A program made the translations under genes and the position numbers. A stretch of DNA of 26,716 nucleotides from a virus (lineage: Duplodnaviria; Caudoviricetes): positions 1-26,716 of IMG/VR virus record IMGVR_UViG_3300031519_008917; one strand, written 5' to 3'. The notes beneath the pieces were generated by a model. The model saw nothing but the letters and a program-made list of their open reading frames with translations, was not told the DNA's origin and did not search any database. Below are positions 3,540 through 24,323 of this stretch, in pieces. How positions within the stretch are numbered: position 1 is the first letter of the stretch; each line of letters opens with the position of its first letter.

Positions 3540-3547
3540 ATAAGTAT
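3540..3547 (-). promoter_or_regulatory. ATANTTAT intergenic motif (ATACTTAT), candidate promoter
   Basis: Fills most of the 15-nt gap (GAGATACTTATTCAT-ATG) before the radical SAM gene. Confidence 0.45.
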
Positions 3548-3550
3548 CTC

Positions 3551-5498: not shown

Positions 5499-5499
5499 A

Positions 5500-6789: not shown

Positions 6790-8099
6790 AATAATTCCTC
6801 AAGTTCATCAACCATTTTTAATTTCATATTTGGAATAAATGTTTCATAAAAATGATAGTAATTATGTTTTATGACATCTTCTATTGACCAATACCAATCA
6901 TGTATTTCTTTAATTGGTTTATTACATAATTTGATAATTTCCTCTTCTATCATATTAAATCTTTTTTTAGTATCATAAACTTTATCATAACTCTCGTCAA
7001 TAAATGGTTCAAAGGTTTTAAATCCATACTCGTGTAATCTCTTTAGTGCACCAACATCATCTAAGTAAATAAAAGGTTGTAAATTGGTTATTGGTTTCCA
7101 AATCTTTTCACTAAAAATTAATTGGTCTTTCCAATCCGTAAAGTTGTTACCTGTAACTATTTGAAAATAACTATTTAAAAAATATTTAACATCAAATTTT
7201 TCATATGAATATTTTGTATTGCTTAAATCTTTCTCATCAATTACCAACGGCATCTTTTTTTCAAGTGATATTCTTTCTTTTTCGGTAACCATCTCTTTCC
7301 AATCCCAATCAGTAATCTTATTAGCAAAAGAAACATAACCCTTGTCTAATAAATTATGTCTATTTAAACTCATAACTAACTTAACTCTATGGTCTTTGGG
7401 TAACCTATTAAATGAAAGATAATACATTTCTCTTATTGTATCTTTGGAATTTACCCATTTTTTCATATTCCTTGATGATTTATTATTTCCATGATACATC
7501 ATTGTTGGATTTTGTTTTGTAAATCTCCATTGGTCTATTGCACAATATTCATATTGTATAATATTAATTTTGGTATCTAATTTAATATTATTGTATGTGT
7601 TATTACTATCCATGTAAATAAAACTCTCCTGTGGAATTTTAAATTTCTTTAATAGAAAATGTATTCTTTCGAGTAATGGTTGGTGTAATATACTATCTCT
7701 GTGATGTGAACCTAACCCCTCATATCCATAATTAATTAATAATTTACATTTACCTTCTTGAATATCTTTGATTACATCATCTGAAATAGAATCAAAAAGA
7801 CTTATATCTTCAAATGTCTCTGGCCATCTATTGTATCCAAGTACCCAGGCAAAACAATTTACATCAATATTGTAAATATAATTGTTTTCTATCTTACTAA
7901 TTGGTAAGGTTTCCATACTTAAATGTTCCCACTCTCGTACAGCTGTTTGTTGATAATCAAACTTAATATCTTGTAACATTCCTAAAAAAACATTACCACA
8001 ATTACAGGTTTTTTTATCTTGAAATTTAAAATTTTCAAGATTGGGTATAGGATCACCATTTTCTTTAAATTGATTAAATCCAAAAATTAATTTATTCAT
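6786..8099 (-). CDS. GT10-like 'ESYD' family protein, 437 aa
   Basis: YYLSFNRLPKDHR; YFQIVTGN...IFSEKIWKPITNLQPFIYL...GFKTFEPFIDESYD. Start moved to ATG 8099 (MNKLIFG), an 8-nt overlap with the upstream stop. Confidence 0.6.
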   Translation of the reverse strand: MNKLIFGFNQFKENGDPIPNLENFKFQDKKTCNCGNVFLGMLQDIKFDYQQTAVREWEHLSMETLPISKIENNYIYNIDVNCFAWVLGYNRWPETFEDISLFDSISDDVIKDIQEGKCKLLINYGYEGLGSHHRDSILHQPLLERIHFLLKKFKIPQESFIYMDSNNTYNNIKLDTKINIIQYEYCAIDQWRFTKQNPTMMYHGNNKSSRNMKKWVNSKDTIREMYYLSFNRLPKDHRVKLVMSLNRHNLLDKGYVSFANKITDWDWKEMVTEKERISLEKKMPLVIDEKDLSNTKYSYEKFDVKYFLNSYFQIVTGNNFTDWKDQLIFSEKIWKPITNLQPFIYLDDVGALKRLHEYGFKTFEPFIDESYDKVYDTKKRFNMIEEEIIKLCNKPIKEIHDWYWSIEDVIKHNYYHFYETFIPNMKLKMVDELEELL

Positions 8100-9036
8100 T
8101 ATTTTTATACCACTCAATTGTTTCTCGTATACCATCTTCAAAAGAATAATCTGGTTTAAATCCAAGTTCAGTTGTTATTCTTTCAGTACTAACCATTCTA
8201 TATGGAATAGTAGTTGGTTTTGAATTATCCCACTCTACTTTTGGAGTTTTACCTGTAACTTTTAGTATCGTATCGACAATATCACCGATAGTTACGGTTG
8301 AACCATAACCAAGATTATATGGTCTCATAGATTCTCCCTTTTCTAATATTAACAACGCACCCTTAACAACATCCTTAACATAAAGAAAATCTCTAACCAC
8401 ATCAGGATTTCCCCAAACCACAAATGGATTCTCATTTTTTAAAACTCGATTAATTAATGCAGGTATTACATGACAAGTTTTAGTATTAAAGTTATCATAA
8501 GGACCAAACATAGCAGTTCCTCTTGCAATTCCAATTTTCATATCAGAAAAATGTGAACAGTGTTCCATGATTTTTTCTCGATATCTTCTCGACCACCCAT
8601 ATCCATAATATGAAATATATGGTTCATCATCCCAATACTCATCTTCTGTTATTGGATATCTTCTATCAGGATAACCAGTAGAACTATTTATATCTAAAAA
8701 TCCTTGTATACCACATTTATTACCTGATTCTAAAAGATTAGACACGAGTGATATTTGAGTTTTTGCTATTTTAAAATCTGTTGGTACATCGGATGGGTGA
8801 CAAATTTTTCCTGCTGCATGAATTACATAATCTGAACCATCTACAAGTTTCATACAATCGTCAAATTTTTCCAAATCAATATTATCCAATACTTCTATTC
8901 TATCATCAACTACATTTAAAGGTCTGTTATGTGTATGTGTTTTTATTTTAGCACCACGATTTAGAAGTTCTTTTATGTAATGTGTTCCAATCATCCCACT
9001 ACCACCCGTAACTACTACTTTTTTATCTTTAAACAT
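8092..9036 (-). CDS. GDP-L-fucose synthase (Fcl/ColC)-like SDR, probable NDP-4-keto-sugar reductase, 314 aa
   Basis: TGGSGMIG, FGPYDNF...HVIPALI, VVWG...RDFLYVKD. The catalytic motif reads YGWSR rather than YxxxK. Confidence 0.8.
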   Translation of the reverse strand: MFKDKKVVVTGGSGMIGTHYIKELLNRGAKIKTHTHNRPLNVVDDRIEVLDNIDLEKFDDCMKLVDGSDYVIHAAGKICHPSDVPTDFKIAKTQISLVSNLLESGNKCGIQGFLDINSSTGYPDRRYPITEDEYWDDEPYISYYGYGWSRRYREKIMEHCSHFSDMKIGIARGTAMFGPYDNFNTKTCHVIPALINRVLKNENPFVVWGNPDVVRDFLYVKDVVKGALLILEKGESMRPYNLGYGSTVTIGDIVDTILKVTGKTPKVEWDNSKPTTIPYRMVSTERITTELGFKPDYSFEDGIRETIEWYKNNE

Positions 9037-10099
9037 CTTTACTCCTCTCCTCTCTAATCTGTGATACAGTATCTGACCAAGTTGATTTTGCTGGGATAAA
9101 ATCTTTACAATATATTAAACTAAATAAATCAATAACATCCCTAAGTATTTTCCTAAAATAAACTAAATTAGAAGCCTCACCACCATCCAATAGACCAATC
9201 TCATTTAAATAATTTTGTGGAAATTTAAAATTATAGTTTGGAATTATATCACTATAATCTATACAATTATATTTTTGATATAACTCTTTTGTAACACTAA
9301 ACTCCTTATAATCAGGAAACAAAGAAAATAATTCTCCTTTATCCATATCCTTAAAATCTCGATATGTTGTTGATATATCACTACTTATATAAAATAATTG
9401 ATTATCAACCAACCGTTGAGTGTTATCAGAATCCTGTTCTTTGTATTTCTGTATTATCCTATCAAAATTACTAACAAAATCTACGTGTTTATATGACTCA
9501 TACAAATCAGTATTTCTTTCGAAAATATCACCAGTAGCAATATCAACCGGTTCTTTATACTCATAATGGTCAAGTGTAGATAAAAGTGTAACATTGTTTT
9601 TTCTGACATGAATACCTATTGAATCAGATACTTTATCTTTTATTAGAGATTTTAAATAAGGATTTTTTAATTTTAATAATTTAAAAACTGGTGGTAAATA
9701 GTAAATTCCGTTATTTCCACCAATATTATCTGATCCAGGTTCTGGTGCCGTAATATTATCTATATTAGGACCACCATCATCAGGACCACCATTCAGATAA
9801 TAATTTTTTGATGTGTCTAAATCTAATATACTCTCATCATATATAAGTTCTATAAATTCTCCATGCATATTATAATAAGGATTACCTTGTTCTACTGAGT
9901 AATCTACAAAAGTAGATTCGGTATATGGAAAATCAACATAATTAGTTTCCGGCCAGTGATATGAATCAAGTAAAATAGTAAATTTAAAATCATGATGTTC
10001 ACTTATTTTATAGGCAAGTGCCCAATGTGGAAGTCGATTTCCAAAACCGGTACATACATCACTTTGCCAAAATTTATCTGTTACTTTTATATATCCCAT
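9029..10099 (-). CDS. Fucosyltransferase-like GT-B glycosyltransferase (GT11/GT23/NodZ-type motifs), 356 aa
   Basis: N-terminal TGFGNRL; motif I IGIHVRK; motif II FYISSD; motif III IDLFSLIYCKDFIPAKSTWS. Confidence 0.72.
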   Translation of the reverse strand: MGYIKVTDKFWQSDVCTGFGNRLPHWALAYKISEHHDFKFTILLDSYHWPETNYVDFPYTESTFVDYSVEQGNPYYNMHGEFIELIYDESILDLDTSKNYYLNGGPDDGGPNIDNITAPEPGSDNIGGNNGIYYLPPVFKLLKLKNPYLKSLIKDKVSDSIGIHVRKNNVTLLSTLDHYEYKEPVDIATGDIFERNTDLYESYKHVDFVSNFDRIIQKYKEQDSDNTQRLVDNQLFYISSDISTTYRDFKDMDKGELFSLFPDYKEFSVTKELYQKYNCIDYSDIIPNYNFKFPQNYLNEIGLLDGGEASNLVYFRKILRDVIDLFSLIYCKDFIPAKSTWSDTVSQIREERSKDV

Positions 10100-10100
10100 A

Positions 10101-11075
10101 TTAGTCCTTGAATGGATTGTGTCTAAAATCCAATTTATTATCTTTGTTTTCTAAATACCAATCAATGGTATTATTAATTCCATCTTCAACGGAAACAGAA
10201 TTCTCGTATCCGTAATTATATGCCCTTGACATATCCAATATTCTTTTGTGGTCTCCGTTTGGTTTTGATGAATCAAATTCTACCTCACATCCAAATTTAT
10301 TTGCAATACTTGTTGCAAGTTTTCCTATATTAACCCCAACTCCACTTCCAAGATTTAATGGTTCGGTTATTTTATTTTCTACCGCGTAAAGCATCCCTCT
10401 TGCAACATCTATAGAATGAATAAAGTCTCTGATTGGTGTTCCATCTCCCCAAACACTCATAGTGCCACCCTTACCGGCTTCTTCTGCCTTTCTAATCAAA
10501 GAAGGAATTACCATTGCAGTTTCTAATTCAAAATTATCCCATTTACCATAAACATTAGCCGGTCTTACAATAGAAATATTATCCCAATCATATTGTATTT
10601 TATAACCTTCTGCCTGTAATTCACCCATTCTTTTTGCCCATCCAGGTAACTTATCATTATCAGATGGAAAGGTTTTCCACATATCATCTTCGTGTGATAT
10701 TTCTGATGGTGTGTAAACTCCATAGGAACTTGTGTATAAATACCAATCCACTCCTGCTTTAAATGCGGCTTCCATCATATTAATATTAAACTTAACCAAT
10801 GGAATAAAATAATTTAAGGGTTTAATCTTTGGCATTTCTGCGGATGCCTTTATACCGGCAACATGAAATACATAATCCATACCCTCACATATCATTTCAC
10901 AATTTTCATAATTAGTCAAATCTACTTTATGAAATTCTACCTCTTCAAAAAAATCAACAGGTTCATCAAGTGAAGCAACTCTTATTTTTGCTCCCCTATT
11001 TAATAATAGCTGTACTAATTCTCTACCTATCATTCCAGTTCCACCTGTCACTAAAACATTTTTATCTTTAAACAT
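10101..11075 (-). CDS. GDP-L-fucose synthase (Fcl/ColC)-like SDR lacking the catalytic Tyr, 324 aa
   Basis: TGGTGMIG, RPANVYGKWDNF, VIPSLIRK, VWGDGTPIRDFIHSIDVA; PGWAK at the YxxxK position. Start is 11075 (7 nt from GGAG) or 11078. Confidence 0.8.
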   Translation of the reverse strand: MFKDKNVLVTGGTGMIGRELVQLLLNRGAKIRVASLDEPVDFFEEVEFHKVDLTNYENCEMICEGMDYVFHVAGIKASAEMPKIKPLNYFIPLVKFNINMMEAAFKAGVDWYLYTSSYGVYTPSEISHEDDMWKTFPSDNDKLPGWAKRMGELQAEGYKIQYDWDNISIVRPANVYGKWDNFELETAMVIPSLIRKAEEAGKGGTMSVWGDGTPIRDFIHSIDVARGMLYAVENKITEPLNLGSGVGVNIGKLATSIANKFGCEVEFDSSKPNGDHKRILDMSRAYNYGYENSVSVEDGINNTIDWYLENKDNKLDFRHNPFKD

Positions 11076-11095
11076 CATATATCTCCAATAATTTT

Positions 11096-11103
11096 TTAAC
11101 TAT
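11096..11103 (-). promoter_or_regulatory. ATANTTA motif variant (ATAGTTAA), candidate promoter
   Basis: In the roughly 30-nt gap upstream of the GGAG SD; one mismatch to the ATANTTAT consensus. Confidence 0.3.
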
Positions 11104-11108
11104 CATTT

Positions 11109-11756
11109 CTATCTACTTTCCTTTCCAAACGTAACCAATGTAAATCTTGGATTCATCGCATAATCAGTTACATGACTAACAAAGTGTGGAAATTTAAATT
11201 TATCAAGTGTATTGTTTATAATGAGTGCACGATTAAATTTTGGAAAAATTGGAATAACAGAATCACTATCATCAGTTTCTTCACTTGCCGTGTCTAAATG
11301 AAAAATTCCACCCCAATCCCATATCCAATCTCGATTAATGTAATATAAACAACCAACACTACTAACCCATTGGTCTAAATGTGTTCTGTAATGACAACCC
11401 TCGTCCATTTTATAACACCTTAAATTGTAATCATTTAAATCAACTTGACTTATATTTTCTAACATAGGTTTAAAATACTTATCGTGTATATTTCCTACAT
11501 CAGAAACTAACCCATCTGAACTCCAAAACTTAGCACTATATGATTCATTTTCTTTTGGTAAGTATTTAGACTTTGTTTTAGCACTCTGAAAATGTGATTC
11601 GGAATATAAATCATCTCTAATTTGGTCTGATATTTTCCAATCTTTATTATGATAATATAATTCTTCTAATTTATTCGCATCATCATTGGGTAAAAAATTA
11701 TCTATGATTACATAACCGTTTTTATTATAATCTTCTCTAAGATTATTTAAATCCAT
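11109..11756 (-). CDS. 2OG-Fe(II) oxygenase (prolyl-4-hydroxylase-like), 215 aa
   Basis: GYVIIDNFLP, HYRTHLD (HxD), LYYINRDWIWDWGG, PKFNR, PHFVSHV (distal His), RFTL (2OG-binding Arg). Confidence 0.85.
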   Translation of the reverse strand: MDLNNLREDYNKNGYVIIDNFLPNDDANKLEELYYHNKDWKISDQIRDDLYSESHFQSAKTKSKYLPKENESYSAKFWSSDGLVSDVGNIHDKYFKPMLENISQVDLNDYNLRCYKMDEGCHYRTHLDQWVSSVGCLYYINRDWIWDWGGIFHLDTASEETDDSDSVIPIFPKFNRALIINNTLDKFKFPHFVSHVTDYAMNPRFTLVTFGKESR

Positions 11757-12918
11757 TACATACCTCAGATATAAAATCTACATCTTCTAAATTTATTGAT
11801 GGGTGTGTTGGTATAATAAACCCCCTTTCATAAATTTTATTTGCAACTTCTCCGTTAAATTCTCCGTATCTACTTTTCCAAAAATTATGTTTTCCAAGAT
11901 TTCCGTGTGACCAAACTCGTGTTTCTATACTATTCTCATTACATTGTTTAATTACTGATTTACGATGATCATTTGATTCTGCCAATACTCCGATGTGTAA
12001 ACTAACAGGTGTGGTATTTGTGCAATCTTGTAGTTCAAATCTATAATTTAATTTTTCAGTATATCGTAAATGATTTTCATTTCGTTTTTTAAATATAATA
12101 TCTGCCTTTTTTAATTGTCGTAACCCAATGTATGCCTGTAAATCAGTAGACCTTACATTAAATCCAGGTTCGTTAAATATGAATGGAAAGTTTTCATCAT
12201 TTCTATATTCATCATTAGCTATATCCTTTACCCACCCATGTGACCTCAACTTTAACAATTCTTTATATAAGAACTCATCATTTGTATTAATAAAACCACC
12301 CTCAATTGTAGATAGTTGATGTCCAAAATAAAATGAAAAAGATGACATATCTCCTAATGTTCCAACAAAACTCCCATCTCCATATCTAGCACCTACTGAT
12401 GCACAAGAATCTTCAAGAATATAACACCCATACTTTTCTTTTAAATACAAAAGGTCTTTTTTTCTATGTGGAACTCCGAGAACATGAACAAACATAAATC
12501 CATCAATATCTCCTTTTTTTAAATAATCCTCTACAATATTTAAATCGATATTATAATTGTCTTTATCCGCATCAACCATTATAGGTTCTATCCCAAACTG
12601 AATAAACGGACTTACGCTAGTAACCCAACCATTTGCGGGTACTAAGAATTTTTTATTCTTTAATAGTCCTGCATTCAATAGAGAATACACCATCAATAGA
12701 TTTGCAGATGAACCACTATTAACATAAACAGAATACTTAGTACCAATGTATTCAGACCACAACCTTTCAAATTTTTTGGTAACATCACCCATAGTAAGTC
12801 GTGGATTTGTCCGTAACCAATCTATAAGTGAATTAATATCACCTTCATCAATAGTATCAGAGGCAAGTGGATATTCCCAAATAGATTGTCCTGTTAAATC
12901 TAATGATTTACTTATCAT
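11743..12918 (-). CDS. colD: DegT/DnrJ-fold PLP enzyme, ColD-type GDP-4-keto-6-deoxy-sugar 3-dehydratase, 391 aa
   Basis: VNSGSSANLL, ILEDSCAS, SFSFYFGHQLSTIEGG (His at the usual Schiff-base Lys position), LRSHGW, GFNVRSTDLQA. It lacks the Cys-rich Fe-S motif of DdhC/RfbH. Start 12918 follows GGGGTG. Confidence 0.72.
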   Translation of the reverse strand: MISKSLDLTGQSIWEYPLASDTIDEGDINSLIDWLRTNPRLTMGDVTKKFERLWSEYIGTKYSVYVNSGSSANLLMVYSLLNAGLLKNKKFLVPANGWVTSVSPFIQFGIEPIMVDADKDNYNIDLNIVEDYLKKGDIDGFMFVHVLGVPHRKKDLLYLKEKYGCYILEDSCASVGARYGDGSFVGTLGDMSSFSFYFGHQLSTIEGGFINTNDEFLYKELLKLRSHGWVKDIANDEYRNDENFPFIFNEPGFNVRSTDLQAYIGLRQLKKADIIFKKRNENHLRYTEKLNYRFELQDCTNTTPVSLHIGVLAESNDHRKSVIKQCNENSIETRVWSHGNLGKHNFWKSRYGEFNGEVANKIYERGFIIPTHPSINLEDVDFISEVCNGFK

Positions 12919-13438
12919 TATAATAATCACCCCATTCTATAATCAACGAAGAACCATCTCTGTTATATGCAGTTTGAAATGCAGGAAAGATTTCTTCTGG
13001 TTCATTTAACAATACCACATCAACTTCACCCAAGATTTGTTTAAATGGTTCAGTATAATTGTTGGTATGTTGAACACCACCGTTTAGTGGATTGGTAGAA
13101 CCAATAGAAGTTCTCATTATAACCTTTGGTTTAAATGTCTGTTCTGTCATATTTTGCATTTTATCTAAATGATTTACTAATGCATCCATACATCTCATAA
13201 AAAAATCAAATCTTGGAAAACAACTAATTGGAACTATTCCATTCATTGCCATTCCAGTACTCATTCCCATCTGTATTTCTTCAAATACAGGCAGTTCAAG
13301 TCTTTTTTCTTCAGGTAATGTATTTAATGTGTTGTAAATTGCATTACCACTATATAAAACTGATTGACCAAGAAAGATTGTTTCTTCTTTTTCACTCAAC
13401 CACTCCATACTTCTTATTATTTCATCTTTATATTTCAT
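12908..13438 (-). CDS. ThDP-dependent enzyme, E1-beta/transketolase pyrimidine-binding domain only, 176 aa
   Basis: IFLGQSV, LELPVFEEIQMGMSTGMAMNG (catalytic Glu), LVNHLDK, GVQH; ends at LIIEWGDYY with no C-terminal domain. TAATG overlap at 13438. Confidence 0.8.
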   Translation of the reverse strand: MKYKDEIIRSMEWLSEKEETIFLGQSVLYSGNAIYNTLNTLPEEKRLELPVFEEIQMGMSTGMAMNGIVPISCFPRFDFFMRCMDALVNHLDKMQNMTEQTFKPKVIMRTSIGSTNPLNGGVQHTNNYTEPFKQILGEVDVVLLNEPEEIFPAFQTAYNRDGSSLIIEWGDYYNDK

Positions 13439-14025
13439 TAGAATAACACCCAATTTCCTGTTCCATGATGTGGATAATCACTTTTATATTTATAATAAAT
13501 TATATCACTTGGAACTTCTTGTTTACCACCCCAAGTTTCTTCAACCGGTGTATTCGTAGAAAGGTTATTATCCTCAACTACAAACTGAATTGGTAAATCA
13601 AAGTTCTTAGCATACTTATATGATTCATGAAATATCCCACTTTCAAAAGTCATATCTCCAACAAAACACCAAACTTTATTTTTCTCGCCTTTCATCTGAA
13701 TGGATTTGGCAGCTCCAAGTGCTATCGGTATAATACCACCCACGATGGCAGATGAATAAAATTTAGGTTCATCACAATATACACTCATACTTTTTCCACG
13801 AACAATCAAGTCCATTAAAAAATCTCTCGGAACTCCGTGTAGTAATGCATGATAGTGATTTCTCCAACTACTAAACACCCAATCATCTTTACTAACATCC
13901 TGAAATATCTCTATCAGTTGTTCCTCGTTATTAGAACTCAAATGAACCGGTGCACTAATTTCACCATCTTCATATCGTTGTTTAACTTCTGTTTCAAAGT
14001 CTATTAAAAACTGTTTATCTATCAT
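13438..14025 (-). CDS. ThDP-dependent enzyme, short E1-alpha (PP-binding) subunit, 195 aa
   Basis: PVHLS, DWVFSSWRNHYHALLHG, SAIVGG, VGDM...VEDNN (GDG-x-NN variant), YPHHGTG. ATGA overlap at 14025 with GGAG upstream. Confidence 0.82.
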   Translation of the reverse strand: MIDKQFLIDFETEVKQRYEDGEISAPVHLSSNNEEQLIEIFQDVSKDDWVFSSWRNHYHALLHGVPRDFLMDLIVRGKSMSVYCDEPKFYSSAIVGGIIPIALGAAKSIQMKGEKNKVWCFVGDMTFESGIFHESYKYAKNFDLPIQFVVEDNNLSTNTPVEETWGGKQEVPSDIIYYKYKSDYPHHGTGNWVLF

Positions 14026-14543
14026 TTGTCTCTCCAATTTAATATAGGGTTTTTTATAGGCCATTCAATACCAATTCTTTCGTCATTCCACTTTAGTACA
14101 TCTTGATCCATCCAATCAACATAATCATGTGGGTATGCCTGTGTGTAATGAAATAAACATTCATCAGTTAAACATAAATGAGCATTTAAAAAATTTGGTG
14201 GAATTAAAACACTTGTATGATTTCTTTCTGAAATTAAAAAACTATCCCACTTTAAGTAATTTACCGATTCAGGTCTATTATCCACCACTACTAAATAAAT
14301 TTCTCCCCAAACACAAGTAATGTTTTTCCAAGTCACATTATCTCCATGTAATCCTCGTAATACATTTTTTCGTGAACGAGTAAACTTAGATATCTTCCAC
14401 TCATGTCCCTTTGGTAATACTTCGTTTTCCTTTTCCCAAAAAGTCCACATCTCACCTCTATAATCATGAAAAGGATCAGGAGTAGCCACTTTAACTTCAG
14501 GAAATACTTTAGAATTTTTGATATCTACTTTGAAGTCACTCAT
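14022..14543 (-). CDS. rmlC: RmlC-family NDP-4-keto-sugar 3(,5)-epimerase (cupin), 173 aa
   Basis: DYRG, SRKNVLRGLH, CVWGEIYLVVVDNR, IPPNFLNAH, FHY, WND..IGIEWP. ATGA overlap at 14543. The substrate may be a GDP-sugar rather than a dTDP-sugar. Confidence 0.85.
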   Translation of the reverse strand: MSDFKVDIKNSKVFPEVKVATPDPFHDYRGEMWTFWEKENEVLPKGHEWKISKFTRSRKNVLRGLHGDNVTWKNITCVWGEIYLVVVDNRPESVNYLKWDSFLISERNHTSVLIPPNFLNAHLCLTDECLFHYTQAYPHDYVDWMDQDVLKWNDERIGIEWPIKNPILNWRDK

Positions 14544-15517
14544 AGGATTTTTCTCCAATGATTTAATAAATCATCACATATCTCATCTAAACCCTTCATT
14601 GGTTTCCAATTAGTTTTTTTTCTAAATTTTTCACTACTCGGTATCTGTAATGTAATATCAGTAGGCCGTATTCTACTTTTATCCTCTTTCTTTTTTAAAT
14701 CTGATTTAGTTGATTTAGATATTAATACATCTAATGCTTCCCCAACCGTACAAGTGTGTTCACCTCCGATATTATATACCTCACCAAATTCACATTTATC
14801 TATGGCTAACCAATATGCCTCAACTGCATCATCTATGTGATTATATGTTCTAACTGATTGTAGATTTCCATGTCGTATAAAACCATCTCCGTTTCCCTTT
14901 TCATTTTGAACTATTTGATGTGCAAAAGATGAGAGTGCAAATCTTTTTCCTCGTCTTTTACCCTCATGAGAAAACATACGAGTTATTATAACTTTCATAT
15001 CAAATGCCTCATGGTAATAATTAGATAATAAATCATGTCCAACCTTTGATATTGAATATGGATTTGCCGCTCTAATTGGATTATTCTCGGTGATTGGTAT
15101 TTCTTCTGACGATGGATTACCATATACTTCAGATGAAGATACACTAACAATTTTTGGATTACAATAATCTCTTTCTTTTGCCAATCTAAGTTCTTCAAAT
15201 AAATTAGTAGTTCCAATTATATTTGTAGTAAGAGTACTGACTGGAGTAAGAAAACTTGATTCTGGAAAACTTTGTGCTGCAAAATGATACACTAAATTTG
15301 GTTTTGCAATATTTATAATTCTTTCAAGACTACCTCTATCTAATAAATCACACTCTTCAAATATAACCCTATCATCACCAAATAAATGCTTAATATTTTC
15401 TTCCTTACTTCTCCACCTTCGAGTAGCAAAGATTTGTACATTTGGAACATTTTTTATAAGATAGTCGGCCATATGACTTCCAACAAAGCCTGTAATACCT
15501 GTTATTAAAACTCTCAT
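14540..15517 (-). CDS. gmd: GDP-mannose/GDP-manno-heptose 4,6-dehydratase (Gmd family, DmhA/WcbK-like), 325 aa
   Basis: LITGITGFVGSH, AAQSFP.SSF, TNIIGT.NL, SSSEVYG, PYSISK, GNL.SVRT, RPTD, DLLNHWR. ATGA overlap at 15517. Confidence 0.82.
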   Translation of the reverse strand: MRVLITGITGFVGSHMADYLIKNVPNVQIFATRRWRSKEENIKHLFGDDRVIFEECDLLDRGSLERIINIAKPNLVYHFAAQSFPESSFLTPVSTLTTNIIGTTNLFEELRLAKERDYCNPKIVSVSSSEVYGNPSSEEIPITENNPIRAANPYSISKVGHDLLSNYYHEAFDMKVIITRMFSHEGKRRGKRFALSSFAHQIVQNEKGNGDGFIRHGNLQSVRTYNHIDDAVEAYWLAIDKCEFGEVYNIGGEHTCTVGEALDVLISKSTKSDLKKKEDKSRIRPTDITLQIPSSEKFRKKTNWKPMKGLDEICDDLLNHWRKIL

Positions 15518-16230
15518 CCCCAAGATTCATTTATAAAATTATATAACTTATCGGCCCATTCTATTTGAACTTCTTCATTTGGATGATTACACTCAGTTAG
15601 TCTATTTTCGGCACTTTTTAAAAATGGTTCTTCATAAAAGTAATCAAAATTAATTAATTTTGTAATATTACAATCCCTATCCATAAAACCATCCGGATTT
15701 CTATCCCCTTCAAAGAAAATATATTTAATATTTTTTGATTCGAAATAAGATTGTAACCCTAATACATACCTCCAAGATATTTCAGAACATTCTTTATTAG
15801 TAGGAACATAATTAAAATTTATTTCATCTCTATCAACCGAAGTATCCCTTTCGTTATGATCCCATGCACTATAACCATCATGTCCGTATTGTGCACCCCA
15901 CCAATGTCTATCCGCATCACTTATTTCAGCATTATTATCTTTATATACAGACCAAATTTCATTTCTAACTGGATATGTTAATTGTATAACAAATATAGTT
16001 TCTTCTAATTTATCTTGATTATTGGTAATCCAATCAAATGTCTTTCTGTAAATTCTCTGATTAGATTCACCACCTCTTGCTTCATTTACATCAGTTGAAT
16101 TAAATTTTTTGGAAAGAAAACCACTATATTTATCTATATAAGTAACCTTTCCCTCGTCAACTTCTGTGTTTTTTAGGCCTGTGCCGTCACTATAACTACA
16201 CCCGTTTGTGTATACGTATTTTATATTCAT
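15514..16230 (-). CDS. SGNH/GDSL-fold protein (possible O-acyl transferase/esterase), 238 aa
   Basis: Block I TNGCSYSDG, block II NEARGGESNQRI, QLTYPVR, block V ECNHP. Confidence 0.7.
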   Translation of the reverse strand: MNIKYVYTNGCSYSDGTGLKNTEVDEGKVTYIDKYSGFLSKKFNSTDVNEARGGESNQRIYRKTFDWITNNQDKLEETIFVIQLTYPVRNEIWSVYKDNNAEISDADRHWWGAQYGHDGYSAWDHNERDTSVDRDEINFNYVPTNKECSEISWRYVLGLQSYFESKNIKYIFFEGDRNPDGFMDRDCNITKLINFDYFYEEPFLKSAENRLTECNHPNEEVQIEWADKLYNFINESWG

Positions 16231-16259
16231 AAAACTAAAAATCCTCTGCTAAAGAGGAC
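16231..16259 (-). terminator. Intrinsic-terminator-like hairpin that also sequesters an SD-like AGAGGA
   Basis: TCCTCT-TTAGC-AGAGGA (16258..16242) is followed by TTTTTAGTTTT and then directly by the ATG at 16230. Confidence 0.55.
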
Positions 16260-16350
16260 ACTATTTAAAGTGCCTCCGTGTGTTTATAGTCATATTATGA
16301 TCGGTTAGGTCTTTGGGTTTTTATACCCCCTGTTTATCATACTGACTTAT
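16231..16350 (-). ncRNA. Candidate structured cis-regulatory leader RNA (riboswitch/attenuator-like)
   Basis: The outer stem AGUCAGUAUGAU (16347..16336)/AUCAUAAUAUGACU (16301..16288) encloses AGG/CCU and GGGU-AUAAAA-ACCC. Downstream, GGAGGCACU/AGUG(U)CCUCU (16277..16253) competes with the terminator hairpin. Confidence 0.5.
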
Positions 16351-16360
16351 ATATAAGTAT
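16345..16360 (-). promoter_or_regulatory. ATACTTAT motif (16360..16353) overlapping a 14-bp perfect palindrome ACTTATATATAAGT (16345..16358)
   Basis: Read directly from the sequence; lies immediately 5' of the structured leader. Confidence 0.5.
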
Positions 16361-16377
16361 ATATATTTTAAAAAAAT

Positions 16378-17613
16378 TTATATTTTTTCTTTAATTAGTG
16401 CTATATACTCATCATAATGTTCATAACCATATTCAGTAAGTCTGTTATAATTATGAATTAGTATATCTTCCATACCCCAAAACCATTTATCCATATCCTC
16501 AATTGACATAGAACATAATCTTTTAATCTCACCATATATTAAAAGTTTTCTTTTTTCACTATTTAATTCTTTATCATAACTTTCATTAATGAATGGGTGA
16601 AATGACTTAAATCCAAATTCTTTCATTGATGATAAAGTATTTGGTTGTCCTATAAAAATAAATGGCTGTAATGTCATCATCGGTTTCCATAATTTTTCAT
16701 TAAAATATACATATGGAAATTTACTACCCTCATCAATTTCAAAAATAGAACCAGATAGTACATGAAAATACGAATTAAAGCATTGAACTACATTGATTGC
16801 ATAAGTAGGAAGGTAACTCCAATCACCAGTTTTATCCCTACCTTCCCAATAATATTTAGAATCAAATTTTAAATCTCTACCACCTAAGATTTTATATTCA
16901 TTATTTTCTATTTCACCGTGTGCATTACTAAAAAAAGTTGCATTACCACACTTTAACAAATCATTATCTCTGAGAAACTCTATTAAATCCAATCTATGAC
17001 TTCTCGGAGAAGAACTAACGGAATAAAAGTGTTTTAATCGTGAAAAATTTCTTCCATTTTTAAAAATATTTAACATATGTGGATGATAATATTCCTGTTT
17101 AATACTATCTAATTGTAATTCCCATTTATTAAAGAATTTTTGAATAAAAGAAAAATCTTTTTGTTGTTTACTATCAATTAAATATTCCGGTGTCATCCAA
17201 ATCAAATTATTCTTGTTAATTTTATTTTTCTGCATAATAGTATCCAAATCACCTTGTTCTTCAAATTCATAGTAGGTATATCCTTCGTCATTCACCCCAC
17301 CCTCTCTTATATTAACAATAACTCGACAATTATTATTCTGTAAATCAGAAATGAGTCGTTTTTCATTTTTAAGGTAATTTAACATATCAACTAAATTATC
17401 ACCATCTAATATCATTACATATGGAGCATCTGGCCAACCATTTTTATTAATATTTAACAAATTAATTTCATTATTTACAAAATTACTGATATTATCAAAC
17501 CCACTCATAAAAAAACTATTATCCCAAACATCAGAAAGGTTGGTTATATTAAAAAATTTAAAAAAAGATTCTCCCTCTTGATGTGAATGTCTCATATAAA
17601 GAATATCAACCAT
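16378..17613 (-). CDS. GT10-like 'ESYD' family protein, 411 aa
   Basis: HFYSVSSSPRSHR; YFHVLSGS...YFNEKLWKPMMTLQPFIFIG...GFKSFHPFINESYD. SD GGAGG at 17624..17620. Confidence 0.6.
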   Translation of the reverse strand: MVDILYMRHSHQEGESFFKFFNITNLSDVWDNSFFMSGFDNISNFVNNEINLLNINKNGWPDAPYVMILDGDNLVDMLNYLKNEKRLISDLQNNNCRVIVNIREGGVNDEGYTYYEFEEQGDLDTIMQKNKINKNNLIWMTPEYLIDSKQQKDFSFIQKFFNKWELQLDSIKQEYYHPHMLNIFKNGRNFSRLKHFYSVSSSPRSHRLDLIEFLRDNDLLKCGNATFFSNAHGEIENNEYKILGGRDLKFDSKYYWEGRDKTGDWSYLPTYAINVVQCFNSYFHVLSGSIFEIDEGSKFPYVYFNEKLWKPMMTLQPFIFIGQPNTLSSMKEFGFKSFHPFINESYDKELNSEKRKLLIYGEIKRLCSMSIEDMDKWFWGMEDILIHNYNRLTEYGYEHYDEYIALIKEKI

Positions 17614-18631
17614 TAAAAACCTCCAATATTTTTTTATCTGTGTGGTGTATGTGAATACCCAATTGACTACTGTTGTGCAATAGAGTTGTTTTCATTTTAA
17701 AATATAATTCATCCATTTCTTTTATTGAAAATTGAGAAATTCTCTTTATCTCATTATGTATTTTTGACATTCTCACATCATATTCTATTTCATCATCATA
17801 TGACTCGTCAATCCAATCAGAAAATGTTTTAAATCCTAATCTTTTTAAGGTTTTTAAAGTTTTATATTGTCCGACTATTAAAAATGGTTTCATACAGGCA
17901 AAAGATTTATATAACTTCTCATCAATATATACTCGTGGGGAATCTTCGGTACTATGTGAATCTGACATAGTGACTATATCAATATACGAATTATAATATA
18001 GTGGTAAATTTAGTTTAGTTGAGGTATATGATGATTCAGACTTTAAATCTAAATGCAAAGATTGTCCTGCACGATTCCAAAAATGAGAATTAAAGGACAT
18101 ATCAAATTTTGACAATAATTTATTTTCAAGTACATAGGACAACAAGTCAACTCTATGTGGTTTTGTGTTTCCATTAAAAGACAAAAAATGTTTCTGTCTA
18201 TATAACTTTTCACTATTCTTATTAAAGTACTTTATAAGTTTTTTATCTATTTGTTGCTGTTCCAATATACAATCTGCCATAGAATAGTTATTAAGAACCT
18301 TACAAGATAAATCATATCCATTTAGATGAAAATCAGGTATTATTACCGATACATCATATTCTAATTTACACAATTCTTCTATTTTAGGTTGATGCAATCC
18401 GTACAATTCTTCTGATAAGGTATCCATATACCATAAAATTATTTTTTTATTCTTGTCCGTAGATTTAATAATTTCAAACGGACTATCACTTTCATATGAT
18501 GGTCGTATTAAAAATATATCACACGAATATAATAATTTTAAATCTTGTATTTTTTCAAATAATATTCTATTTGTCCAAATTTCATTAAAATTATTTAGAA
18601 CTTTATTATTAAAGTAAAATGCTGTTTTCAT
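17606..18631 (-). CDS. GT10-like 'ESYD' family protein, 341 aa
   Basis: HFLSFNGNTKPHR; YIDIVTMS...YIDEKLYKSFACMKPFLIVG...GFKTFSDWIDESYD. Confidence 0.6.
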   Translation of the reverse strand: MKTAFYFNNKVLNNFNEIWTNRILFEKIQDLKLLYSCDIFLIRPSYESDSPFEIIKSTDKNKKIILWYMDTLSEELYGLHQPKIEELCKLEYDVSVIIPDFHLNGYDLSCKVLNNYSMADCILEQQQIDKKLIKYFNKNSEKLYRQKHFLSFNGNTKPHRVDLLSYVLENKLLSKFDMSFNSHFWNRAGQSLHLDLKSESSYTSTKLNLPLYYNSYIDIVTMSDSHSTEDSPRVYIDEKLYKSFACMKPFLIVGQYKTLKTLKRLGFKTFSDWIDESYDDEIEYDVRMSKIHNEIKRISQFSIKEMDELYFKMKTTLLHNSSQLGIHIHHTDKKILEVFNG

Positions 18632-20548: not shown

Positions 20549-21250
20549 TTAAACTTCCATATAATATTGACCAACAGAAAAGTATTCTGATTGCCGAAAA
20601 TCAATATTTTTAGATTTTATTATAGTGTCTGATAATTTATTTGTATCGTATTTCCTATGTGCAAATCCCCTACAATCCAAAGAAACTCTACTATTTTTAG
20701 AATTATTAAAAGTTTTTGCACCATGTTGATAAGTATTTAAGTTTGCCTCTAATACTTGTCCGTATTTAAGTAAACAAGGTTTGAGTTGATTATTTTCGTC
20801 CATTACATACATTGTATTATCATTATCCACATCAATCATCGGTATCCAAAAATTAGTTTCCCAAGATGGATGATAGAATGGAGCTTCACCATCTGAGTGA
20901 CAATTGAATTTAATTCCATTTTGTTCAACAACTTTACCACCAAACTGTACCCATTCACTATTTTTATTTGATTCGGTTAATTTTTCTTTTGATGGGATAA
21001 TTTTAACAGATGGTAATTGCTGAACTACTATTTTTGTATCTTTAAGAATACCCTTTACCACATCCTCACAAAATGATTCCCATATTAATTTAAAATCTTT
21101 ACTTGTTCTAAAGTACTCATACACTTTACCAACTATTTCCTCACTACCAACTTTAAATTTTTCGTGTATTTTTTCTAATTTGCACTCTAATAAATCTTCA
21201 AGTAATATCTTGAATGGATACTTTTCAATATTATAATTATGCACTTTCAT
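20549..21250 (-). CDS. StrG-like Fe(II)/2OG-type oxygenase, 233 aa
   Basis: YNIEKYPF, QQLPSVK, CHSDGEAPFYHPSWETNFWIPM, YQHG, RVSLDCR; paralogue of 93..749. Confidence 0.72.
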   Translation of the reverse strand: MKVHNYNIEKYPFKILLEDLLECKLEKIHEKFKVGSEEIVGKVYEYFRTSKDFKLIWESFCEDVVKGILKDTKIVVQQLPSVKIIPSKEKLTESNKNSEWVQFGGKVVEQNGIKFNCHSDGEAPFYHPSWETNFWIPMIDVDNDNTMYVMDENNQLKPCLLKYGQVLEANLNTYQHGAKTFNNSKNSRVSLDCRGFAHRKYDTNKLSDTIIKSKNIDFRQSEYFSVGQYYMEV

Positions 21251-22355
21251 TATACAAGTCTCCTAAAAAAACTTCAAACCTCTTTAATTCGTAATCGTAT
21301 TGTGTTCTTAGATGGTTGGCATTATGATAAAGAATATCTTCCATCTCGTAATATAAATTATGTAATTCATCTATACTATAAATAGACAAATTAATGATAT
21401 TTTCTTTTATCATGTCAAATCTCGTATCAAAATCCGTTTCACTATCGTAACTCTCATCAATAAATGGGTGAAATGTTTTGTATCCCCACTTTTTTAATAA
21501 TGATAAAGTATTAGGTTGACCTATGACAATAAATGGTTGAAAAGTCATAAAATTTTTATGAATTCTTTCTGCTAAAAAAATGTTACCCTCACTAATTCTA
21601 TTTTCTGTGGTTATGTTTACATAAGAATTAAATTGTGCCGTTGTATTTAAATAAAATTCTTCATTTGAAAAATTACCAGGTAATAACTTAACATCATTCA
21701 TATCACCCGGTGTTGGTAACCCATCAGAAGAACCAAAAACATCTTCAATTTCTGATTTTGTATATTGAGAAAAGAAAGTATGTTTTGTTTTTTTAAGTAT
21801 ATTATTCTCTTTAAGAAAATTATATAAATGAAATCTTTCTTCCTTTAAATGGTGATTAAAACTTAAAAAATGAAAATCTCTATTGTATGGTTTCATTGAT
21901 TCAAAATACTTAGAAAAATCTACATATTTATCTTCTCTATCAACATATGATATTCCCACAAAATCTACATATAAAACATCTTCATTATCACCATGTTCTC
22001 CACTTACAACATATGCGTTTGGTACATCTAAATCTTCTACTAAATCAGTTGAATCCCAATCTGGACTATAAAATACAATCTTACACTTATCTTGTTTAGC
22101 GTCATCGACTATCTGTTTCCATAAAATATCATCCTTTACATCATCGTTCCAAAATCCAGCACTAAATTTTAAAGCAAAAAATACAATATACTTTTCAGTA
22201 GGTAATTCTATAAAATTAAAATTATCATTATTAAATTTAGGAAATGAGAATGGTAGATTTTTATCAGGCCATTTTCCATCTTCGTATGACAAGACTTCCT
22301 GTGTATTAACAACTTCAATTTGATTTTGATATTTAATTGTTAAAATATCAATCAT
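21237..22355 (-). CDS. GT10-like 'ESYD' family protein, 372 aa
   Basis: HFLSFNHHLKEER; YVNITTEN...FLAERIHKNFMTFQPFIVIG...GYKTFHPFIDESYD. Confidence 0.6.
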   Translation of the reverse strand: MIDILTIKYQNQIEVVNTQEVLSYEDGKWPDKNLPFSFPKFNNDNFNFIELPTEKYIVFFALKFSAGFWNDDVKDDILWKQIVDDAKQDKCKIVFYSPDWDSTDLVEDLDVPNAYVVSGEHGDNEDVLYVDFVGISYVDREDKYVDFSKYFESMKPYNRDFHFLSFNHHLKEERFHLYNFLKENNILKKTKHTFFSQYTKSEIEDVFGSSDGLPTPGDMNDVKLLPGNFSNEEFYLNTTAQFNSYVNITTENRISEGNIFLAERIHKNFMTFQPFIVIGQPNTLSLLKKWGYKTFHPFIDESYDSETDFDTRFDMIKENIINLSIYSIDELHNLYYEMEDILYHNANHLRTQYDYELKRFEVFLGDLYNESA

Positions 22356-22861
22356 CGTAAAATACCCTCGTTACTAAAATCATAACTCATATCAAGAGTT
22401 CCATCTTCTAAAATCATACCAGGTCTCCAACAAGTTGACCAATGTTGTTTATCTCTATTAATATAAATAGGAATCATATCATTTCCAAGTTGTATGTGTG
22501 CAGTTACTCTATGAGAACCATCTAAATAAGTAATCTTTCCATCTTCGATTTTAACATCTACTGGCATCACTCCACCTGCCTTGATAACTTCTCGTAAGTA
22601 ATATACTAATGCACCATGAGTATTTTTACCAGTCATTTCCCATACACATTGACATACTGTAACTCCACGACTTATACCATCAAAATTTGATTCTTTTTTT
22701 GTTGGTCTTGCACAATATTGAATCTCATTCCAATGGTCAATATCAGGTATAATACCAAAGTTATCGATACCAACATATTCAGAAAACTTTGTGTAATGTA
22801 GATATCCATCAGGTTCTTCATACATTTCTTTAATATATTTAAGTTCCTCTTGTCTAACCAC
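22352..22861 (-). CDS. ParB/sulfiredoxin-fold protein, about 169 aa
   Basis: IKAGGVMPVDV...YLDGSHRVTAHIQLG...IPIYI matches the ParB-N G-x-P-I-x-V...DGxHR..A pattern. Likely GTG start at 22861 after GAGGT; ATG 22825 is an alternative. Confidence 0.65.
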   Translation of the reverse strand: MVRQEELKYIKEMYEEPDGYLHYTKFSEYVGIDNFGIIPDIDHWNEIQYCARPTKKESNFDGISRGVTVCQCVWEMTGKNTHGALVYYLREVIKAGGVMPVDVKIEDGKITYLDGSHRVTAHIQLGNDMIPIYINRDKQHWSTCWRPGMILEDGTLDMSYDFSNEGILR

Positions 22862-24323
22862 CCACAACCTCTGATATTTCAGTCCAACAATTTTTTCTAT
22901 CTTGGTGTTTATAATTTGCAAAATGTTCTTGATTATATAAAAGAATATCTTCCATTTCATAATACCATTTATGTATTTCTTCTTTTGACATACTACATAA
23001 TCTTTTTATCTCGTCTAATATCATAAAAAATCTTTTGTCATTATCTACTTCTTCATCGTAAGATTCATCTATCCAAGGCTGAAAAGTTTTATATCCTATT
23101 TCTCTAAGTTTTTTCATAGCAAATGGATTGGTAAGATAAATAAATGGTACTAATTGTGATATAGGTTTAAAAACCTTTTCACTCATATAAATACAATCTT
23201 CATAATAACAACTTTCAGTAATAACATTAAAATAAACTCTTTTATATTGTGGTGCAAAATTTGACCATTGACCAACTGCCCCACTCCCCCATTCAGGTAA
23301 GAATTCTGCATCTATATCACCATCTGCATCAATAGGATATAATGGTTTTATATTTTTTAATGCATTACTAACCAACTCATTTTGTTTTTCGTCTTTTAAA
23401 AAATCTCCTATTTTGTTTGGGAATACTCCACCAAAAATCTCATCTACTCCTTTTGCTCCACAACTAATAATTCCCTTATCTTGTAACCCCATTTCATAAA
23501 TCATTGCAACTAATGCCAACCTATACTCCCTTATAACTCTATTATAACATAAAAAATACTTTTCTCTTATAGTATCTCTACCATCATCTAAATCTTTTTT
23601 ATTAACAAATGATTGTTTATGTGGATAAAGTTCGTCTATCTTTTTATTATAATCATCATTTAATATTTGATGGTATATTTCATTACTACTCTCTAACATA
23701 TGATTCATTTCAATAATATGCATCTTCTTTTTCGTTAACGTTGGCATTCTATCACAAAAATCTTTGTATTGTTTTTTACCATTCAAATTACTTGCAACAA
23801 AAAAAACTTTATTTGCTGGAATATTATATATATTTAATTCATTATGTAAATTTCTGTATGCCTTTGGATCAACATGACCTTCTTGTGTATAATTAATTAA
23901 AAGATAACCATTTTTATTTGCAATTAAATCTAATAACCTACTACTCATAAAATCAAAAATACTACCCCATTGTTTAGGTGCATCATCTCCATCTATACCA
24001 AGATAAGAATGTAATCCACCAACACCAAAAGGTAAAACAAAATATGTATTATCTTCTAACTCATCAATACTAACTTTTTCATGTCCATCATCAAAATGTG
24101 GATCTAAATTTCCAAGGCCATTTCCCCAATAATAATTACCTGATTTTTCTCCTATTTCCAATGGATGAGTATTTACTTTACCTAATACTGGATTTGTTTC
24201 CATCCAATCAATTTCTGGTGGATTTTCATCTCGAAAATCACCATGCTCTCGTCTCCCACCACCCCACGGATCTGGTCTACCTTCGTGTCTAACTACGTCT
24301 TCTAAAATTTTAATTTCTTTCAT
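22854..24323 (-). CDS. GT10-like 'ESYD' family protein, 489 aa
   Basis: YFLCYNRVIREYR; YFNVITESCYYEDCIYMSEKVFKPISQLVPFIYL...GYKTFQPWIDESYD. Best match to the alpha-1,3-FucT motif among the seven paralogues. Confidence 0.62.
   Translation of the reverse strand: MKEIKILEDVVRHEGRPDPWGGGRREHGDFRDENPPEIDWMETNPVLGKVNTHPLEIGEKSGNYYWGNGLGNLDPHFDDGHEKVSIDELEDNTYFVLPFGVGGLHSYLGIDGDDAPKQWGSIFDFMSSRLLDLIANKNGYLLINYTQEGHVDPKAYRNLHNELNIYNIPANKVFFVASNLNGKKQYKDFCDRMPTLTKKKMHIIEMNHMLESSNEIYHQILNDDYNKKIDELYPHKQSFVNKKDLDDGRDTIREKYFLCYNRVIREYRLALVAMIYEMGLQDKGIISCGAKGVDEIFGGVFPNKIGDFLKDEKQNELVSNALKNIKPLYPIDADGDIDAEFLPEWGSGAVGQWSNFAPQYKRVYFNVITESCYYEDCIYMSEKVFKPISQLVPFIYLTNPFAMKKLREIGYKTFQPWIDESYDEEVDNDKRFFMILDEIKRLCSMSKEEIHKWYYEMEDILLYNQEHFANYKHQDRKNCWTEISEVVGG

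Follow-up and report, generated by a model that had tools for sequence, protein, structure and literature searches.

The 5' leader of a sugar-nucleotide operon in a Caudoviricetes phage (IMG/VR record IMGVR_UViG_3300031519_008917; the whole stretch of 26,716 nt analysed is called the window below) belongs, as we hold with high confidence, to a real and new class of cis-acting structured RNA that matches no Rfam family. The class is represented by 103 distinct aptamer sequences, parsed from 571 loci in marine phage and metagenome contigs, with covarying helices, competing downstream helices and a position directly before genes of one pathway. On balance we favour the reading that the leader is a metabolite-sensing riboswitch turning its genes off, for which we infer binding of a small molecule. 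Going by the gene context, the likeliest ligand, tentatively, would be a GDP-linked sugar made by the operon.

The leader locus in the window

All genes of the window are encoded on the minus strand, and the 147-nt gap at 16231-16377 (-) is the only one longer than 30 nt among the 27 ORFs listed, just as the first-pass annotation, made from the letters of the window, had stated. The minimum free energy fold of the gap has -30.1 kcal/mol (z = -2.95), better than that of each of 200 shuffles. Since 19 of 1330 other 120-nt windows fold equally well or better, fold energy is insufficient to single out the leader; conservation does single it out. The gap had also been described as GC-richer than its surroundings, which is true of the core at 16241-16347 (38.3%) but not of the whole gap (29.3%, compared with 29.1% for the window). 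The terminator is the sole terminator-like site within the 10-22 kb region, which is not above chance because shuffles averaged 3.3 such sites. A search for tRNA and tmRNA found none. Taken alone, the single sequence is suggestive, short of decisive.

The elements that had been read from this one sequence were mostly recovered. The long stem was found as 16347-16343 paired with 16292-16288 and 16341-16336 paired with 16301-16296. The two competing hairpins lie where they had been placed, as an antiterminator at 16277-16253 (-10.9 kcal/mol) and a terminator at 16259-16241 (-7.6 kcal/mol), and the SD-like AGAGGA is indeed 11 nt upstream of the ATG. The features of the leader and of the operon are listed in Table 1.

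In 79 of the 103 members a motif of the TAyTTAT type stands no more than 25 nt before P1, against a background of about 0.02 per such stretch. In the window this promoter-like motif lies within a perfect palindrome, ACTTATATATAAGT, at 16348-16361 (-). A second copy of ATACTTAT is located at 3545-3552, directly before the start of a 671-aa radical-SAM gene. Four RNA libraries contain pieces that overlap the leader or span from P3 into the first gene; as they are possibly DNA and are given without strand or ends, nothing is concluded from them on expression.

Table 1. Predicted elements of the leader and genes of the operon, with positions in the window
Feature	Position	Strand	Basis
Promoter-like motif ATACTTAT, putative function	16353..16360	-	TAyTTAT-type motif
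Aptamer-like domain	16270..16347	-	covariance model R1 match, 75 bits; window within training set
P1 5' strand, pairs with 16292-16288	16343..16347	-	GUC/GAC core nearly invariant; fifth pair covaries
P1b 5' strand, pairs with 16301-16296	16336..16341	-	4 of 5 pairs changed on both sides
Conserved unpaired AAC	16332..16334	-	neither A varies across the 87 rows of alignment A1
P2 hairpin, variable loop, register ambiguous in the window member	16315..16330	-	first pair G-C in 59 and C-G in 32 of 94
Conserved unpaired AAAG	16311..16314	-	forced by patterns, yet kept in contigs found by proteins alone
Pseudoknot 5' strand CCU-AA-CCG	16302..16309	-	three positions covary with 16278-16273
P1b and P1 3' strands with internal loop	16288..16301	-	fold and alignment
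A-rich linker AUAAACACA, predicted pseudoknot loop 3	16279..16287	-	AUAAA conserved, rest variable in length; partly pattern-forced
Switching strand CGGAGG, shared by pseudoknot (3' strand) and antiterminator (5' arm)	16273..16278	-	covariation and folding
P3 / antiterminator hairpin, predicted ON state	16253..16277	-	P = 0.85 in free fold
Terminator-like hairpin and U tract, predicted OFF state	16231..16259	-	3' arm holds SD-like AGAGGA at 16247-16242
First gene, 238 aa, presumably SGNH-like, replaceable	15514..16230	-	weak DUF6071 match below cut-off
NDP-sugar 4,6-dehydratase	14540..15523	-	top solved relative GDP-D-glycero-D-manno-heptose 4,6-dehydratase 7US5, E 7e-66
Cupin 3,5-epimerase, GDP-heptose type	14022..14558	-	GDP-heptose 3-/3,5-epimerase structures, E ~1e-45 to 1e-49
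Two thiamine-diphosphate enzyme subunits, E1 alpha-like and beta-like	12908..14064	-	Pfam E1_dh, Transket_pyr
ColD-like PLP-dependent C3-dehydratase	11743..12930	-	top solved relatives ColD/WbdK, E 2e-46
GDP-fucose-synthase-like reductase	10101..11078	-	sequence match
Second GDP-fucose-synthase-like reductase	8092..9036	-	sequence match

Members of the family and their carriers

An exact 20-mer search found the homologue locus L001, whose leader is identical to that of the window at 121 of 125 nt, compared with 203 of 300 nt downstream and 179 of 300 nt upstream. Sequence patterns run on viral contigs yielded further, diverged copies. On metagenome contigs the core pattern gave at least 119 loci (about 140 by estimate), and 113 of the 119 listed are members in our reading. 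Loci were also collected through the dehydratase and epimerase proteins and searched with covariance model R1, which avoids the bias of the patterns. R1 matched in 11 of 66 dehydratase-anchored and 18 of 80 epimerase-anchored sources, every time upstream on the coding strand, the 5' leader position expected of a riboswitch. Sixteen contigs that were found through proteins alone and missed by the pattern searches carry new compensatory variants. Model R2, applied to 100 protein-anchored loci lacking an earlier match with 4-5 kb of flanks covered, found nothing below E 5. A relaxed viral pattern, scanned over about half of the collection, gave mostly chance matches, and R2 on 100 of these added one copy of a known member. 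A distant blastn search of the leader against cultured phages gave no match. Left out of the set were L367 (identical to the window), the partial L331 and L419, loci above 40% GC in the parses, and duplicates.

Eight sequencing runs from seven studies, none of which carries a flag as a possible source, each contain at least half of the region's words; the runs comprise seven marine metagenomes and a viral metagenome. Each of the five carrier records checked holds one copy of the RNA. Three of these five long records encode the capsid protein Gp23 (one is a complete 216-kb genome), and on this gene the checked carriers can be classed as T4-like phages. Among named phages the closest capsid proteins come from Microcystis phage Mel-JY01 (56%), Flavobacterium phage immuto (52%) and Rhodothermus phage RM378 (38%).

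A class of riboswitches usually has a wide distribution among cellular organisms. In GTDB genomes three patterns gave 11, 9 and 16 loci, and R2 accepted 1 of these 36 (L589:2973-3044, G006:C30), located on a contig that was binned into a gammaproteobacterial MAG and carries the gene set of the phages. Gp23 was looked for on this contig and none was found. Because of its phage gene set, and because 0 of 60 relatives of the MAG carry the RNA, the contig is likely a mis-binned piece of phage. The GTDB pattern searches with model R2 thus gave no convincing cellular copy, a point against a riboswitch class. The subtypes of the leader are scattered over the epimerase tree (L492-L571), suggesting that leaders are exchanged by recombination as modules separate from the genes.

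Helices and conserved loops of the aptamer

Helices P1, P1b and P2 are supported by covariation in the relatives. In an alignment fitted to the structure 94.9% of their cells are paired and 10 of 13 pairs have changed on both sides; in the unfitted alignment A1 92.8% of cells are paired, and the pairing in both alignments beats 500 of 500 shuffles and all slides. A C-G pair of P1 is replaced by U-A in 3 of 94. A GGGU/ACCC helix had been proposed by the first-pass annotation at the place of P2, and the hairpin as such is borne out by covariation, with a register that is ambiguous here between GGG/CCC and GGGU/ACCC. In the group of L505 the hairpin reads CUC-UUCG-GAG, so that a UUCG tetraloop is tolerated. 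P2 is about 55 nt longer in six members (L315:2914-3042, L326, L356, L392, L419 and L423); the insert has its own conserved-looking sequence and may be a second structured domain.

The invariance of the two A residues of AAC was demanded neither by the search patterns nor by the parse. Much of the conservation in the core stems from the search patterns themselves, which in part prescribed AAAG, CC, UAAA and GG-GG; these motifs nevertheless persist in the members found through proteins.

The pseudoknot

The covariation also supports a pseudoknot that was absent from the earlier reading, in which CCUAACCN pairs with N'GGAGG. It takes the place of an inner AGG/CCU helix proposed before, which failed: AGG is present in 46 of 103 members, and the CCU covaries with the downstream GGAGG instead. 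The pairing CCUAACC/GGAGG was proposed from four sequences, ahead of the variants, and later data agreed with it at three positions. The N/N' pair is G-C in 66 members, C-G in 20, U-A in 6, A-U in 3 and A-C in 8, that is, Watson-Crick in 95 of 103 with all four types represented; among chance pattern matches it was paired in 4 of 21 distinct ones. The U-A pair of the pseudoknot is U-A in 93, A-U in 5, C-G in 1 and U-U in 4, and one C-G pair is changed to U-A in L501/L502 (1 of 103 distinct). A mismatch in the pseudoknot columns is found in 12 of 103 members (8 A-C, 4 U-U).

Significance was assessed with a tree-aware G-test, our own imitation of R-scape. Among 3081 column pairs ranked under its tree null, the five highest all belong to the proposed structure (E over all pairs 0.02, 0.065, 0.11, 0.51 and 0.83). 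With 19 pairs as the basis of the count, E is below 0.05 for eight proposed pairs; with all 3081 it is so for just one (0.02), the pseudoknot pair standing at 0.11, and significance over all pairs is marginal. In an earlier, less diverse alignment the top three were proposed pairs, none of them below 0.05 (E 0.13-0.45). RNAalifold on A1 returned just five invariant pseudoknot pairs (-0.29 kcal/mol) and none of the nested stems, and therefore gives no covariation support. The members come from related phages, and N/N' changed only about seven times on the RNA tree. Mapping on the epimerase tree gives eight coincident changes for N/N', which are not independent because whole leaders appear to move between operons. 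The predicted topology is that of an H-type pseudoknot in which loop 1 accommodates P2, two bases bulge from the second stem and loop 3 is A-rich.

Expression platform and proposed switching

A hairpin followed by a U run was parsed in 78 of 91 distinct platforms, and variants of the stem keep the pairing. The third pair of P3 is C-G in 66, U-A in 12 and U-G in 2 of the 80 parsed, with loops of 6-25 nt. The base of the terminator, GUCCU/AGGAU in 62, is changed to GCCUC/GAGGC in 7 and to others, with variable loops.

Masking of single strands was used to follow the competition between the hairpins. In the leader of the window the terminator had a predicted probability of 0.14 when folding was free; this rose to 0.96 once GGAGG was masked and was 0.09 once the linker was. 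Across the family the gain exceeded 0.3 in 81 of 91 members on masking of GGAGG and in 1 of 91 on masking of the linker. When the pseudoknot strands were masked the terminator formed in 88 of 99 members; 68 of these 88 were below 0.5 when free, and 20 had a probability of at least 0.5 even unmasked. Because masking of GGAGG removes the antiterminator by construction, these values show competition, not ligand dependence. The free state is ahead by 4.9 kcal/mol and the bare pseudoknot duplex has -3.7 kcal/mol, rough values that ignore loop and tertiary terms. A ligand could tip this balance, which is the one expected of a switch that requires a partner.

Seven members have neither the hairpins nor the terminator. 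In these, GGAGG is the Shine-Dalgarno site, 3-6 nt before the AUG of the epimerase gene, so that the pseudoknot would block ribosome binding; across all members the start codon is 3-57 nt downstream of GGAGG. By computation, the expression platform overlaps the aptamer in both the terminator and the Shine-Dalgarno type, as it does in riboswitches. Two unrelated platforms would follow the same logic, with the genes OFF when the pseudoknot is formed. An aptamer-like domain joined to an expression platform had been suggested before, and the suggestion is strengthened by the 103 homologues, the covariation, the conserved unpaired bases, the two platforms and the gene context. Two outcomes named beforehand as refuting it, missing covariation and a fold no better than that of shuffles, did not occur.

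We propose the following mechanism. Transcription would start from the upstream promoter-like motif, with P1, P1b and P2 the first helices to fold. As long as no ligand is bound, GGAGG would extend P3 over UCCUCU, no terminator would form and the operon would be read. Once ligand is present, it would be held in a pocket to which the conserved AAC, AAAG, AUAAA and the AA bulge contribute, and the weak pseudoknot CCUAACCG/CGGAGG would be locked. UCCUCU would then be free to pair with AGAGGA, which would cause termination and hide the ribosome site as well. In the seven members mentioned above, formation of this pseudoknot would itself conceal the Shine-Dalgarno site.

Regulated genes

The specificities of the enzymes in Table 1 rest on best matches, from which the nucleotide and the sugar were predicted. 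The dehydratase scores below the gmd equivalog cut-off, and the epimerase of the window matches dTDP RmlC at E 7e-19 or weaker. The SGNH-like label of the 238-aa first gene is one that we take from its motifs.

This first gene is replaceable. Over 96 loci the first gene is the dehydratase in 42, an SGNH-like gene in 30, the epimerase in 20 and another gene in 4; in a few loci found through proteins it is another reductase or a radical-SAM gene. Among 55 distinct loci for which 2.9 kb or more of downstream sequence is available, the epimerase is present in 49, the alpha subunit of the thiamine enzyme in 36 and the dehydratase in 35. An epimerase or dehydratase of the GDP-heptose type occurs within 2.9 kb in 53 of the 55 loci, and in 41 of 42 of those found by RNA pattern. 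As judged from these matches, the first gene varies and the pathway is constant, and the regulated genes share one metabolic theme. A diverged member (L466:605-683) heads a radical-SAM gene and a transketolase-type pair, followed by dehydratase and epimerase, so that the position of the thiamine enzyme is occupied there by another enzyme family.

Taken together, the gene matches suggest that the product of the operon at 8092-15523 (-) is a branched 3,6-dideoxy sugar, possibly a heptose. The GDP-sugar operon of the first-pass annotation is right in that these are sugar-nucleotide genes; by appearance the pathway is more exactly of the GDP-heptose or branched-deoxysugar type. Like the GDP-3,6-dideoxy-heptose pathway described for Campylobacter (PMC10440746), the phage operon has a 4,6-dehydratase, a PLP-dependent C3-dehydratase, an epimerase and a C4-reductase. 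Like the thiamine-dependent pathways to acyl-branched sugars, in which, as described in PMC9306805, the thiamine enzyme adds the branch, it would have a thiamine-dependent branching step in addition, and the two thiamine-diphosphate subunits likely serve this role. The likeness to the pathways of PMC10440746 and PMC9306805, as far as described there, is one of the regulated genes only, the leader not being found in cellular genomes by pattern.

No match to gmhA or to an NTP-transferase was found in five carrier records, one of them complete. The phage therefore likely draws on the host pool of GDP-sugar, which would make feedback useful, and with an OFF switch on such a pathway the signal would be the product or a late intermediate.

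The window also contains at least seven paralogous ORFs of 340-490 aa with a C-terminal motif of the type F..FIDESYD, at 3551-8165, 16378-18631 and 21237-24323. They have no Pfam match and are probably a phage family of glycosyltransferase-like proteins. Three ORFs among the glycan genes (93-1554 and 20549-21250), also with no Pfam match, show an H-x-D...H pattern, which we take to be typical of 2-oxoglutarate oxygenases.

Alternative explanations

The same fold and OFF switch could be triggered by a protein, if a product of the operon or another phage protein attaches to the pseudoknot and represses its own operon. All structural and context evidence fits this equally. The epimerase is the most constant gene (49 of 55 loci), the RNA tracks one epimerase clade (17 of 23 top-ranked epimerase loci and L532, and 0 of 56 others), and the motif is limited to phage-like contigs; the autoregulation of T4 gene 32 through a leader pseudoknot is a precedent. 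However, no RNA-binding regulator is visible in the operon, the RNA hardly varies even though the epimerases linked to it share as little as 43% and at most 91% identity with that of the window, and the many invariant purines round the junction would suit a small-molecule pocket. We consider a protein trigger unlikely, though as the main rival it deserves serious attention. An attenuator free of any ligand, in which pseudoknot and antiterminator compete kinetically or by temperature or ions and so set the read-through, whether constant or varying with the environment, appears improbable. In its favour, the two states differ by no more than a few kcal/mol, and the unmasked terminator probability ranges from 0.01 to 1.0 across members. 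But simple competition needs neither the invariant unpaired AAC, AAAG, AA and AUAAA nor a P2 insert, and the free-state terminator of the window barely shifts from 4 to 37°C (0.04 to 0.14, in a fold with the pseudoknot outside the model).

A promoter-like motif and a terminator flank about 110 nt, as they would in a trans-acting small RNA or small ribozyme that merely adjoins the operon. The RNA is nevertheless always on the coding strand and directly before the same pathway while the upstream genes vary, the seven members without terminator run into the start codon, the conserved antiterminator covaries, and no Rfam ribozyme family matched, so that we give this explanation little credence. 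Even less do we expect that the leader has diverged from a class already known, be it a riboswitch or an orphan (TPP, SAM, cobalamin, NAD+-II, manA or wcaG). The thiamine-, NAD- and PLP-dependent enzymes of the operon and a layout resembling NAD+-II (PMC9841397) speak for it; against it, Rfam covariance models gave 0 matches in the window at the gathering level, and only irrelevant sub-threshold rows at E up to 10 or 5 in the window and 12 homologue loci. Further, the NAD+-II riboswitch as described in PMC9841397 accompanies pnuC transporters in Streptococcus, and no pnuC was seen here. The leader of the window holds two short ATG frames, as a leader-peptide attenuator might, but ATG frames that reach 5 residues are absent from 62 of the 103 aptamers and no leader peptide is conserved, which refutes a leader peptide as a family-wide mechanism; chance structure is excluded by the covariation and 97% conservation. 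Either of these is extremely improbable.

Significance of the leader

Returning to the metabolite-sensing OFF riboswitch, the leader is a compact candidate (about 75 nt) in which one strand has two partners and serves two platforms. As a tentative model, it would be a phage-specific class that binds GDP-heptose or a branched GDP-deoxysugar directly, and the first RNA sensor of a nucleotide-sugar. To our knowledge no RNA switch reads a GDP-linked sugar, and the literature searched, with most subscription papers outside its reach, yielded no report of a nucleotide-sugar riboswitch. If a GDP-sugar is bound, the leader would add a new ligand type for riboswitches and feedback control of a phage glycan pathway, and it would be a genetically encoded sensor for nucleotide-sugars; a lytic phage would meter its own drain on the host GDP-sugar pool. 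If a protein is bound, it would still be a new phage autoregulatory element.

Comparison with known RNA classes

No description of the motif was found in the literature searched, with the same restriction on subscription papers. The core string occurs there once, in a preprint on an unrelated method, as far as its text was available, and the main text of Weinberg 2017 does not mention GDP, epimerase or dehydratase. The catalogue of Fremin 2023 (PMC10690425) contains 10,006 viral candidate RNA alignments. By comparison of its descriptions, not of alignments, DNAVirus_8349 is the sole row with WcaG/GDP domains; it is an unlikely prior listing because it is mostly freshwater (37 of 41) and 17 of 41 are Nucleocytoviricota. 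DNAVirus_5765, compared by description only, is marine and has SGNH genes, and it could be a prior listing. An unnamed prior listing of the motif in this catalogue is possible.

In agreement with the earlier statement that no known family fitted, the covariance models of wcaG (RF01761) and manA (RF01745) gave no match to the leader, nor did those of TPP, SAM, cobalamin, the other Rfam riboswitches or the Rfam ribozymes.

Like the NAD+-II riboswitch of pnuC as described in PMC9841397, the phage leader has two stems linked through an internal loop, together with a variable hairpin; its 3' tail is A-rich, and a short pseudoknot would occupy the ribosome binding site with OFF logic. This is an analogy of layout only, and a match at the level of sequence was not found. 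NAD+-II has a ligand of the nucleotide type, and the same is proposed for the phage leader. In contrast to NAD+-II, the pseudoknot strand of the phage leader is located downstream of the inserted hairpin, contains a bulge of two bases and would mostly drive a terminator, and the genes that follow are sugar enzymes, none of them pnuC.

Like epsC/EAR (RF01735) and JUMPstart (RF01707), which influence transcription elongation from the leaders of polysaccharide operons (PMC2864571), the phage leader stands before glycan genes. Those RNAs promote antitermination via proteins and their models do not match the phage leader, in which a shared strand would choose between pseudoknot and antiterminator.

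The motifs manA and wcaG, listed in 2010 as riboswitch candidates near marine sugar genes (PMC2864571), resemble the phage leader in being marine, in occurring in T4-like phages and in lying in 5' UTRs of exopolysaccharide or mannose/fructose genes. As described there, they are found in cyanophages with mixed gene sets, whereas the phage leader follows a single pathway, for which reason we would expect a much narrower set of ligands, and is predicted to have an explicit terminator/antiterminator switch. According to PMC9004378, riboswitches are rare in phages and are copies of cellular classes. Like the glutamine (glnA) riboswitch treated there, the leader is a candidate riboswitch of T4-like marine phages; that riboswitch belongs to a known cellular class, whereas the phage leader would form a new one, found so far in phage-like contigs only.
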